From the NCBI RefSeq assembly GCF_024298765.1, contig NZ_CP101210.1: a stretch of 64,000 nt of DNA. One strand, 5' to 3'. The translations under genes were made by a program, and so were the position numbers. The notes beneath the pieces are model-generated. The model was given only the letters and a program-made list of their open reading frames with translations, was not told the DNA's origin and did no database searches. This document shows positions 19,681-63,746 of this stretch, one piece after another (position 1 is the stretch's first letter; the number at the start of each line of letters is the position of its first letter). The stretch is from Escherichia coli. GTDB taxonomy: Bacteria; Pseudomonadota; Gammaproteobacteria; Enterobacterales; Enterobacteriaceae.

Positions 19681-19905
19681 ATGCCGGATGTGGCCTACGG
19701 ATCGGCACAGACCTGTAGGCATGATAAGACGCGTCAAGCGTCGCATCAGGCATTGTGCGCCAGCTGCCGGATGCGGCGTGAACGCCTTATCCGGCCTACG
19801 GTTCGGCACAGACTTGTAGGCATGATAAGACGCGTCAGCGTCGCATCAGGCATTGTGCGCCAACGGCCGGATGCGGCGTAAACGCCTTGTCCGGCCTACG
19901 GCACG
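19681..19905. repeat. REP/BIME cluster
   Basis: four alternating gccggatgcggcgtgaacgccttatccggcctac-type units. Confidence 0.8.
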
Positions 19906-23152: not shown

Positions 23153-24742
23153 TTAATGCTCGCGGGTCTGGTGGAACTGAACGTCTGGATAACGTTCCTG
23201 CGCCAGGCGCAGGTTGACCATGCTGGTAGCGATGTAAGCGAGGTTATCGCCGCCATCAAGCGCCAGTTGGCTTTCGTTCTTACGCTTGAACTCTTCGAAT
23301 TTCTTCGCGTCCGCACATTCTACCCAGCGGGCAGTGGCAACGTTGACTGACTCATACACTGCTTCAACGTTGTATTCGCTCTTCAGACGCGCTACCACCA
23401 CATCAAACTGCAGCACACCAACCGCACCAACGATCAGATCGTTGTTGGAGATCGGACGGAACACCTGCACCGCGCCCTCTTCGGAAAGCTGTACCAGCCC
23501 TTTAAGCAGCTGTTTTTGCTTCAGCGGATCTTTCAGGCGGATACGACGGAACAGTTCTGGCGCGAAGTTCGGAATACCGGTGAACTTCATCATCTCACCC
23601 TGGGTAAAGGTGTCGCCGATCTGAATGGTGCCGTGGTTGTGCAGACCAAGGATATCGCCAGGATACGCTTCTTCAACGTGCGAACGGTCACCCGCCATAA
23701 AGGTCAGCGCGTCGGAGATCACCACATCTTTCGCAGTACGCACCTGGCGCAGCTTCATGCCTTTTTCATATTTACCGGACACCACACGCATAAACGCCAC
23801 GCGGTCGCGGTGTTTCGGGTCCATGTTGGCCTGAATTTTAAATACGAAGCCGGTAAATTTGTCTTCGCTCGCCTCTACGGTACGGGTATCAGTCTGACGC
23901 GGCATCGGCGCAGGAGCCCACTCCACCAGGCCATCCAGCATATGATCAACGCCGAAGTTACCCAGCGCAGTACCGAAGAATACCGGAGTGATTTCGCCCG
24001 CAAGGAACAGCTCTTTGTCGAACTCGTTAGACGCGCCTTTCACCAGTTCCAGTTCGTCACGTAGCTGCTGTGCTAGATCTTCACCAACCGCAGCGTCGAG
24101 ATCCGGGTTATTCAGCCCTTTAACAATGCGGACTTCCTGAATCGTGTGGCCTTTACCGCTCTGATAGAGATAGGTTTCATCTTTATAAAGGTGGTAAACG
24201 CCTTTAAACAGCTTGCCGCAGCCAATCGGCCAGGTGATCGGTGCGCAGCCGATTTTCAGCTCGTTCTCAACTTCATCGAGCAGCTCCATCGGGTCGCGGA
24301 TATCACGGTCAAGTTTGTTCATAAAGGTGAGGATCGGCGTGTCGCGCAGACGGGTAACTTCCATCAGCTTACGGGTACGATCTTCAACACCTTTTGCGGC
24401 GTCGATAACCATCAGGCAGCAGTCCACCGCCGTCAGGGTACGATAGGTATCTTCCGAGAAGTCTTCGTGCCCCGGGGTGTCGAGCAGGTTAACCAGGCAA
24501 TCGTGATACGGAAACTGCATCACAGACGTAGTAATGGAGATCCCACGCTGCTTTTCCATCTCCATCCAGTCCGACTTAGCGTGCTGGTTGGAACCACGGC
24601 CTTTTACTGTACCGGCGGTCTGAATGGCCTGTCCGAACAGCAGCACCTTCTCGGTGATGGTAGTCTTACCGGCGTCCGGGTGAGAAATAATGGCAAAAGT
24701 GCGGCGCTTCGCCACCTCTTGCAAATAAGGAGACAACGTCAT
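23153..24742 (-). CDS. prfC: peptide chain release factor 3
   Basis: 529 aa from [28 protein letters not shown]ase motif. Confidence 0.95.
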
Positions 24743-27686: not shown

Positions 27687-27773
27687 GCGAAGGTGGCGGA
27701 ATTGGTAGACGCGCTAGCTTCAGGTGTTAGTGTCCTTACGGACGTGGGGGTTCAAGTCCCCCCCCTCGCACCA
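27687..27773 (+). tRNA. leuQ: tRNA-Leu (CAG), first copy
   Basis: 87-nt GCGAAGGTGGCGGAATTGGTAGACGCG...CCCCCCCCTCGCACCA with encoded CCA. Confidence 0.95.
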
Positions 27774-27801
27774 AAAACCACGTTGATATTGCTCGCACTG
27801 G

Positions 27802-27888
27802 GCGAAGGTGGCGGAATTGGTAGACGCGCTAGCTTCAGGTGTTAGTGTTCTTACGGACGTGGGGGTTCAAGTCCCCCCCCTCGCACCA
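27802..27888 (+). tRNA. leuP: tRNA-Leu (CAG), second copy
   Basis: same 87-nt sequence with one substitution (gtgttc instead of gtgtcc). Confidence 0.95.
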
Positions 27889-27922
27889 AACGAGGCAATA
27901 TCAAAAAAAGTAAGATGACTGT

Positions 27923-28009
27923 GCGAAGGTGGCGGAATTGGTAGACGCGCTAGCTTCAGGTGTTAGTGTCCTTACGGACGTGGGGGTTCAAGTCCCCCCC
28001 CTCGCACCA
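27923..28009 (+). tRNA. leuV: tRNA-Leu (CAG), third copy
   Basis: identical to first copy. Confidence 0.95.
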
Positions 28010-51981: not shown

Positions 51982-52012
51982 GGCCGCCATGTGGCGGCCT
52001 GAATTATTTTTT
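51982..52012. terminator. bidirectional terminator between yjiA and the brnA-like gene
   Basis: ggccgccatgtggcggcc hairpin followed by T-run. Confidence 0.6.
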
Positions 52013-52306
52013 ATTCTGATCGCGCAGCATCGCTTCACGTAAAATTGCGTTCAGGCGAGTTTGATAGCCTTTACCTGGTCGCTTCAACCATTCCATCACA
52101 TCAGCATCAATACGCACCGAAGCCTGAGTTTTCAATGGCCGATAAAACTTACCGCGTTCTGCGTTAGACCATTGCTCATCGCTGGAAGGTGGGATATCGC
52201 TGTAATCAATCTCTTCGTCGGATTTATTCGCCAGCACCTTCAATTCGGCCTCATGCTGCACATCGAGTGTAGAGGAGGTCCCTCGTTTATGTTTAACCAT
52301 GCTCAT
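52004..52306 (-). CDS. BrnA-like antitoxin (DUF4415/COG3514, RHH-type)
   Basis: 100 aa with family-typical EIDYSDIP...SVRIDADVMEWLKRPGKGYQTRLNAILREAM; ATG overlaps upstream ORF stop (ATGA). Confidence 0.6.
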   Translation of the reverse strand: MSMVKHKRGTSSTLDVQHEAELKVLANKSDEEIDYSDIPPSSDEQWSNAERGKFYRPLKTQASVRIDADVMEWLKRPGKGYQTRLNAILREAMLRDQNKK

Positions 52307-52431
52307 AGCGGCTCCGTTCGTTGTGGATCATCAAACACTAACACCGCATCTTCAAAGCGGATGCCATGTTTCACCCGATTACTTTTGGCCTTGTTTGCAT
52401 CCCATTCAAACTCCATTGGCATAGTTGCCAT
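52303..52431 (-). pseudogene. truncated BrnT-like toxin (DUF497) ORF, 42 aa
   Basis: hand-translated MATMPMEFEWDANKAKSNRVKHGIRFEDAVLVFDDPQRTEPL; BrnT-type N-terminus but about half the usual length; not in the ORF track (<60 aa). Confidence 0.5.
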
Positions 52432-52437
52432 CCCTAA

Positions 52438-52449
52438 TTGTATATACAA
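52438..52449. promoter_or_regulatory. perfect 12-bp palindrome TTGTATATACAA just upstream of the brnT-like start
   Basis: read directly from sequence. Confidence 0.4.
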
Positions 52450-60354: not shown

Positions 60355-60435
60355 TTAGCGCGGTGCGGATGTGCGCCAACACACCCGCACCGCTAATCAC
60401 AATCCCTATTTCAAAGGAATAGTAATCATGACTGA
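60355..60435 (-). ncRNA. symR: SymR antisense sRNA region (boundaries approximate)
   Basis: known cis-antisense RNA over the symE translation start; coordinates inferred from symE position, not from mapped ends. Confidence 0.45.
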
Positions 60436-62561: not shown

Positions 62562-62679
62562 ATTCGAAATAGTGGCGAGCCCCCTGATTTCCTCTCACGA
62601 ATCGCGTGTGACTCGTTTTATCTTTGCAGGGTCATCGCCACGTTCCAGCATGGCTTAGGCAAAGTGTGCTTTGTTCATA

Positions 62680-62785
62680 CCGGATGCGGCGTGAACGCCT
62701 TATCCGGCTTACAAATCGCGCAAATTCAATAGATTGCAGAGGTAATGTAGGTCTGATAAGCGTAGCACATCAGGCAGCTTTGCGT
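62680..62785. repeat. REP elements
   Basis: ccggatgcggcgtgaacgccttatccgg and ggtctgataagcgtagcacatcaggc. Confidence 0.7.
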
Positions 62786-62802
62786 TTGTCATCAGTCTCT
62801 GA

Positions 62803-63746
62803 TTAGTACTCGATCCATGGATCGCGCTTGCTTTCAGGCAAGGGTTGCTCTAATGCCTGCATTTGCTCTGCCGAAAGTCCAGTATATCGTTGTATCCATT
62901 CAGGATCCGCACCGTTCTGCAAAAGCAATCTAAGGAGGCGTTGTTCCCCTTCTTCTTTCCCCTTTTCCATCCCTAACAGCCATCCATCATTATGAATTCG
63001 CTCTGCAATCGTCATTATTCGCTCCCTTTGTTGTGGCATTCGACGGGTAAGTTCACTGATAAACTCATTAAAACGCGCTTCATCGCCAGTCAGTAAAATG
63101 TAATTTAACAGCGCAGTTATCTGGCTGTCATTAGCACACTCTGTAACCAGTAATATTACCAGTTGATCGATAAGCCCCATCAGATCGCGCTGGCGAATAT
63201 GCTTTTGGATCAACTCCAACAGGGCGACTCTGCGGTGCTGCACAATCTCGTCGTCTGGCACGACAGTGACATCCACCAGCGGGAACGCTGCGGTATAAAG
63301 CTTCCGTGCGGTGGTCGGGTCAGCAAATTCGTCCAGCCAGCACAGGGACAGGGATAAGGACTACGGCTACCGTGATAAAACAGCATCGGGATGACCAGCG
63401 GTAGCGGTCGGCGTTTATCATGCTCGATATGGCGCTGCATCACCGCCATGGAATATCGCATCAGGCGAAAGGCCATATGGATATCCTCGCGGCTCTGATG
63501 TTCAATCACTACGTAAATATAACCATCACCTTCACGGGTCTTTACCGACCACAGAATATCGGAGTGTAGCGCCCGCAATTTTTCATCGACGAAGCTGGCG
63601 GATTCCAGTTTTAAGCTGTCGAGATCGCACAGTTCACGTAAATCTTTGGGTAAGTGGATCTCCATAAAATCCCGCGCGGTGTCAGGGTGCGTGAGAAAGG
63701 ATTTAAATAATGCGTCATGCGGCGTGCTGGTTGTGAAGTTTGTCAT
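62803..63746 (-). pseudogene. rpnD: recombination-promoting nuclease RpnD (YhgA-like), frameshifted
   Basis: ORFs 63210..63746 and 62803..63276 overlap in different frames; the first goes out of family sense after ~120 aa. Confidence 0.7.

Follow-up and report, generated by a model that had tools for sequence, protein, structure and literature searches.

The minus strand of the window (by which we mean the whole 64,000-nt stretch of Escherichia coli DNA analysed here) carries between 62803 and 63746 two overlapping ORFs, 63746..63210 (178 aa) and 63276..62803 (157 aa). This raises the question of whether they are parts of one broken gene, what broke it, and what the locus could still produce. 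The first-pass annotation had described a frameshifted rpnD whose N-terminal ORF keeps a YhgA-like nuclease core, with the reading frame switching near 63210–63280 as in the split annotation of K-12 (yjiP/yjiQ).

Gene identity and position of the lesion

Both ORFs matched PF04754 (Transposase_31, YhgA-like; cutoff 21 bits): ORF 63746..63210 aligned with profile positions 1–142 (E 6e-60, 202.7 bits) and ORF 63276..62803 with positions 150–202 (E 2e-11, 44.4 bits). Since adjacent ORFs hold consecutive parts of a single domain at scores far above chance, the split gene is real. The NCBIfam equivalog model for RpnA was matched at positions 3–133 and 157–291 of 292, with scores (175 and 145 bits) that do not reach its cutoff of 583 for either ORF, while with TIGR01784 the N-terminal ORF scored 98.2 against a cutoff of 52.1. 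NCBIfam has no RpnD-specific model, and PADLOC has none that matches RpnD.

The gene order at the locus is yjiN, mdtM, the rpn gene, yjiR, yjiS, symE and a type I restriction system. As these neighbours match the K-12 surroundings of rpnD (b4584), the window gene is the positional orthologue of rpnD. Besides lying between mdtM and yjiR, it is most similar to rpnD alleles (91–100% DNA identity), and its protein identity to RpnA, RpnB and RpnC is 48–63%. We conclude that 62803–63746 is a genuine split rpnD, a member of the YhgA-like/Rpn family of PD-(D/E)XK nucleases. The outer coordinates agree with those of a PGAP pseudogene in identical public records, and the frameshifted gene is in this respect an ordinary and known pseudogene, already flagged in RefSeq for identical sequences.

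Some features of the neighbourhood may be recorded here. According to the annotation of the colinear strain 13P477T, rpnD borders on a defence island, as shown by SymR/symE, the genes of the type I R-M system and a gene for a restriction endonuclease. The SymR antisense antitoxin RNA (Rfam RF01809, 93 bits) lies at 60357–60433 on the minus strand, adjoining symE, and REP-like palindromes, ccggatgcggcgtgaacgccttatccgg and gtaggtctgataagcgtagcacatcaggc, were seen by eye at 62670–62790, in the spacer of the convergent yjiR and rpnD.

The lesion was mapped against the rpnD allele of strain 2011C-3911, the nearest lesion-free allele (97.8% identical over 1.2 kb), which is 945 nt long and forms a single ORF of 314 codons. 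Aligned to it, the 944-nt window gene contains a sole 1-bp gap, at gene position 398 (window 63349/63350), and when 14 orthologues were compared this gap was the only frame-changing difference. Re-inserting the G gave a 314-aa protein with one PF04754 match covering 1–202 of 203 positions (E 1e-86, 290 bits), so that one missing base explains the split. The alignment with intact K-12 RpnA, RpnB and RpnC that the first-pass annotation had proposed puts the break after SPYP (residue 132), and the native frame resumes at SLCWLD. The earlier placement of the frame switch near 63210–63280 marks only the overlap of the two ORFs; the lesion itself lies 75–140 nt further upstream in the gene. We also considered a translational restart at the GTG at 63276, which would give a 157-aa C-terminal protein, and set it aside as improbable: this GTG is merely the first start codon for the ORF lister, and no Shine-Dalgarno sequence is visible upstream of it by eye. 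Features of the locus are collected in Table 1.

Table 1. Features of the rpnD locus, in window coordinates
Feature	Position	Strand	Evidence or remark
rpnD pseudogene, 944 nt	62803..63746	-	ORFs; PF04754 and TIGR01784/RpnA models; PGAP 'frameshifted' at the same coordinates in identical records; synteny
Native codons 1–132, PD-(D/E)XK core with D11, D63, E82, Q84	63351..63746	-	Identical to intact orthologue; aligned with RpnA/B/C
1-bp deletion, CCCTGGTCC > CCCTGTCC; W133 codon TGG minus one G	63349..63350	-	Only 1-bp gap against 14 orthologues
Aberrant tail of the N-terminal product, 46 out-of-frame codons (CPCAGWTN...SPCWS) plus TGA 63212–63210	63210..63350	-	Departs from RpnD/A/B/C after SPYP
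Native frame, residues 134–314, with PDDEI and C-terminal tail, cut off from the start codon	62803..63348	-	PF04754 positions 150–202
Candidate sigma-70-like internal promoter, ATGACA-18-TAAATT with TG, ~85 nt upstream of the internal ATG	63102..63131	-	Consensus scan only; weak
Shine-Dalgarno AGGGAG, 6 nt before the internal ATG (63015..63013)	63022..63027	-	Same SD-N6-ATG in paralogues
RpnD_S, predicted intragenic antitoxin, intact ORF of 70 codons (70 aa, ends WIEY)	62803..63015	-	Identical protein in Santai allele; BLASTP to RpnA_S
Hypervariable repeat stretch, first helix of RpnD_S	62941..62985	-	8 aa longer than K-12, 4 aa shorter than 318-aa alleles (protein alignment)

The paralogue RpnA has been described as a non-specific DNA endonuclease of the PD-(D/E)XK superfamily that depends on Mg and is stimulated by Ca; its activity requires D11, D63, E82 and Q84 and is affected by PDDEI, a conserved motif that lies in the domain's second half (Kingston 2017, PMC5350276). 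When the window gene is aligned with RpnA, RpnB and RpnC, these four residues are encoded before the break, within native residues 1–132, and PDDEI (residues 164–168) after it. The description of the N-terminal ORF as keeping the YhgA-like nuclease core thus holds at the level of sequence. We envisage that the rpnD of one E. coli lineage lost one G of the GG pair in codon 133, and that translation from the normal start would now yield 132 native residues comprising the PD-(D/E)XK core, after which 46 residues would be read out of frame before a stop is reached. This truncated product would be without the second half of the YhgA-like domain, with its PDDEI motif, and without the C-terminal dimerisation tail; as both are missing, the toxic full-length nuclease RpnD_L is most likely not made. 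Loss of function is to be expected since deleting just the last 45 residues of RpnD strongly lowers its activity (Kingston 2017, PMC5350276). The continuous single RpnL protein that characterizes a functional Rpn member is absent from the window gene, which runs into a stop after 178 codons. The 178-aa N-terminal fragment, which keeps all known catalytic residues, may nevertheless have residual nuclease activity.

Inheritance of the deletion

An exact 81-mer across the deletion was found in 64 of 5,426 complete E. coli genomes; the deletion context in the carriers reads CCCTGTCCC. The sources of these carriers are animals (chickens, turkeys, pigs and a dog), humans, and both river water and seawater; many are avian or APEC. 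In all five carriers that we inspected (13P477T, 2009C-3133, APEC O2-211, KKo009 and a UK blood isolate; the sources, spread over four countries, are pig, human, chicken and river water) the CDS is 944 nt long and is labelled 'frameshifted' by PGAP. Four carriers from the USA, Japan and the UK, compared base by base, showed no differences from the window over the gene and 447 nt of flanks. Recurrence in 64 genomes together with identical alleles indicates a clonal mutation and not an assembly error, and we conclude that the deletion is real, inherited and recent. It can serve as a lineage marker and adds one more decaying toxic defence nuclease, which alone carries little weight.

At larger scale, window 24678–64000 is 99.96% identical to 13P477T (NZ_CP019273.1), and window 1–24900 is 100% identical to the carriers D10 and CT282. 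Strain 13P477T is colinear with the window only at 24678–64000. Beside yjjG, as the counterpart of window 1–24677, it carries an integrase and a dGTPase-family gene together with a prophage segment, yfdPQR; the window, like D10 and CT282, has the core genes sltY, ettA, prfC and radA there instead.

A single-base indel is the commonest type of long-read error, and the first-pass annotation had itself named a continuous ORF after sequence correction as its refuting case. That the missing base is such a sequencing or assembly error in an intact gene is nevertheless very improbable. The exact deletion recurs across 64 complete assemblies that were produced independently, in many laboratories and from many hosts and countries, the checked carrier records share a byte-identical 944-nt gene, and the site is a GG dinucleotide with no long homopolymer. 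Alternatively, the two frames might be joined during translation into full-length RpnD by programmed -1 ribosomal frameshifting of the IS3 type. The family has long been annotated as 'putative transposase', a -1 shift would restore the frame, and the native frame is open from its upstream limit at 63360, some 10 nt before the deletion, down to the frame-0 stop at 63210. Yet a search for in-frame slippery heptamers of the form X XXY YYZ up to that stop, the signal expected of IS3-like programmed frameshifting, found none, and a shift elsewhere in the overlap would put aberrant residues within the conserved domain. In addition, all paralogues, and most orthologues as well, consist of one ORF, and the identity of Rpn proteins as transposases has been disputed (Zhong 2023, PMC10400941). 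We give this mechanism almost no credence.

The comparison with the K-12 split suggests a further possibility, that both strains inherited the same lesion by common descent. rpnD is indeed disrupted at the same chromosomal position in both, but in K-12 codon 133 reads TGG and the frame does not change; its defect is an in-frame CAG>TAG amber at codon 104, where the window has CAG. Furthermore, the two alleles are ~9% apart and differ by 24 nt in the length of the tail, and an allele whose protein is otherwise identical to that of K-12 (L016) has CAG at codon 104 and is intact. A shared lesion is accordingly improbable in the extreme. The window deletion and the K-12 nonsense mutation are independent events in different lineages, and the K-12 annotation is not transferable to the window allele, whose break at 63349/63350 is genuine and its own.

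Other alleles of rpnD

In a spread sample of 15 E. coli genomes, 12 have an intact rpnD of 921, 945, 957 or 966 nt. The gene is usually intact, and at least three lineages have lost its function through separate events. The intact alleles of 2011C-3911 (WP_000181170.1, 314 aa) and of O157:H16 Santai (WP_021557499.1) have TGG at codon 133 and form one ORF. The gene of strain A39 is also intact, at 321 aa; it contains a 21-nt in-frame tandem duplication (SLKLESA repeat) at gene positions ~129–149, in the N-terminal domain.

The inactivated K-12 gene (b4584, formerly yjiP/yjiQ) shares with the window its family, its slot between mdtM and yjiR, and an intact C-terminal small ORF with SD and ATG. 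Unlike the window gene it is 921 nt long and in one frame, and PGAP flags it as 'internal stop'. The two alleles are ~91% identical, and the repeat region of K-12 is 8 residues shorter. An 81-mer of the K-12 type with TAG was present in 339 complete genomes, which are largely laboratory derivatives and include the NEB strain ER1709. Strong toxicity and SOS induction have been reported for rpnD amplified from MG1655 DNA, with the stop codon unmentioned (Kingston 2017, PMC5350276). In NC_000913.3 the gene is listed as a pseudogene (4568998–4569918). An amber suppressor in the host of the toxicity experiments, such as glnV44 inserting Gln (the residue of intact alleles), could presumably explain the toxicity of the MG1655 gene.

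In the O157:H7 strain OK1, rpnD likewise carries an independent, PGAP-flagged frameshift. Here, unlike in the window, the cause is a 25-bp tandem duplication (GACGATTGCAGAGCGAATTCATAAT; positions 939–990 of the extracted locus) directly after the internal ATG (codon 245). It truncates the product of the original RpnD_S start and creates a second ATG-MTIAER ORF in the downstream frame, which is without the AGGGAG SD; the original Shine-Dalgarno sequence is weakened to AGAGAG. BLAST with an 86-nt query across the OK1 junction was uninformative for counting carriers, as it joined two overlapping pieces in genomes free of the duplication.

Similarity to the intact alleles is unevenly distributed along the window gene. 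Over its 5' 680 nt there are 2 differences from 2011C-3911 (one SNP and the deletion) and 31 from Santai; over its 3' 266 nt there is 1 difference from Santai and there are 21 from 2011C-3911. This pattern suggests a mosaic allele that recombined at the border of the variable tail encoding RpnS.

The predicted small gene within rpnD

The rpn genes have been described as gene-within-gene toxin-antitoxin systems, in which a separate transcript arising inside the gene is translated, from an in-frame start codon within the 3' part, into the small protein RpnS, which binds and blocks the toxic full-length RpnL (Zhong 2023, PMC10400941). According to the same study, internal transcription starts have been reported for all rpn genes of K-12, where RpnS was detected in 5 of 5 cases and long forms only for RpnB, RpnC and RpnE. 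The internal start of RpnA (M244, with the RBS at K240/E241) was proven by mutation, a variation of 4-aa repeats begins 8–20 residues after the initiating Met, and one plasmid-borne Rpn protected against T-even phages.

We therefore compared the internal starts of the family. rpnA has AAGGAG-N6-ATG ACT ATT GCG GAA followed by an ORF of 49 codons in all, rpnB AAGGAG-N6-ATG with 53 codons, rpnC a related arrangement (GGGAGG/GGAG) with 59 codons, and K-12 rpnD AGGGAG-N6-ATG with 62 codons. The window gene has the same AGGGAG-N6-ATG as K-12, and its ORF is open down to 62803. All five internal ORFs start with MTIAER, MTIADR or MTLAQ. At the level of sequence, the window gene thus shows the RpnL/RpnS arrangement of an in-frame internal start with SD leading to a small C-terminal protein. 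The deletion lies 334 nt upstream of the RpnD_S start and leaves it untouched.

Pairwise BLASTP aligned RpnD_S with the crystallised RpnA_S (49 aa, PDB 7th0) at E 2e-8. A PDB sequence search with full-length RpnD returned a weak RpnA_S match (E 0.29) and otherwise chance matches to designed repeat proteins. PF14261 (DUF4351) gave no Pfam match in RpnD_S even at E<=10, and the homology to RpnA_S is a pairwise one. Between RpnA (YhgA; RpnA_L-RpnA_S, PDB 7th0) and the repaired RpnD, protein identity is 59%. Common to both are D11/D63/E82/Q84, PDDEI, the internal SD-N6-ATG-MTIAER start and a homologous C-terminal domain. RpnA, however, is intact and biochemically characterised, whereas the window RpnD should be unable to make the long form, and at 70 aa against 49 aa RpnD_S has extra repeat residues and a longer C-terminal extension than RpnA_S. 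Among RpnD alleles, protein alignment shows length differences of 8 and 12 residues that begin 11–15 residues after M245, including DGWLLGRERGRKEGKVEGERS, and the lengths of the alleles change in steps of 12/24 nt. This repeat variation agrees in position and 4-aa periodicity with that described for the family (Zhong 2023, PMC10400941).

A promoter for the small gene is less clear. The candidate listed in Table 1 is identical in sequence in K-12, but the consensus scan that found it returned 2 sites against 1.9 expected, that is, at chance frequency. As the frame and start signals of RpnD_S are intact, it could putatively be expressed as an orphan antitoxin, and the window locus may still be making it. 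Conservation does not inform us about selection for RpnD_S, since the carrier lineage is too young and too uniform (no differences).

The whole locus could instead be an inert relic, in which the truncated nuclease and RpnD_S are neither made nor relevant. The chance-level promoter match would fit this, as would the specificity of RpnS for its own RpnL partner and repeat number, which leaves an orphan RpnD_S without an obvious target. It is harder to reconcile with the SD, ATG and ORF, none of which is damaged and all of which match those of functional alleles exactly, and with K-12, which is also without full-length RpnD and had RpnD_S among the five small proteins detected (Zhong 2023, PMC10400941). 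We regard an inert locus as possible, though somewhat doubtful. Taking all of the above together, we hold with high confidence that the locus is an inherited frameshift pseudogene that has lost RpnD_L and keeps the predicted RpnD_S frame and signals intact, perhaps as an orphan antitoxin. The label 'pseudogene' would then hide an apparently intact gene-within-a-gene, the predicted RpnD_S, a point of use to annotators.

Both the window deletion (codon 133) and the K-12 amber (codon 104) spare the predicted RpnD_S gene and its start signals, the O157:H7 duplication recreates an MTIAER-initiated ORF in the new frame, and one could imagine that rpnD repeatedly loses its toxic long form yet keeps the intragenic antitoxin. 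If this were true, it would imply that orphan RpnD_S is kept by selection, to name one possibility because it protects against rpnD alleles arriving from elsewhere. The RpnS ORF takes up 213 of 945 nt, however, and three lesions would all fall upstream of its start with a probability of ~47% (0.775 cubed) by chance, so three lesions cannot establish such a pattern. We consider it unlikely. Should orphan RpnS proteins prove functional, several E. coli lineages would offer natural test cases in their rpnD pseudogenes.

Elsewhere in the window, an intact ORF for the antitoxin BrnA (52004–52306, minus strand, 100 aa) adjoins a truncated ORF for the toxin BrnT (52303–52449, minus strand, 48 aa), which PGAP calls 'incomplete' in 13P477T. 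After rpnD, this is the second place in the window where a decayed toxin is paired with an intact antitoxin. The MFS transporter gene lgoT, at ~39.4–40.7 kb, bears an 'internal stop' flag in the near-identical 13P477T record. Finally, two tandem naRNA4 (REP325-type) repeats lie at 19718–19896 on the minus strand, and three tandem tRNA genes, tRNA-Leu according to the 13P477T annotation, at 27687–28006 on the plus strand.
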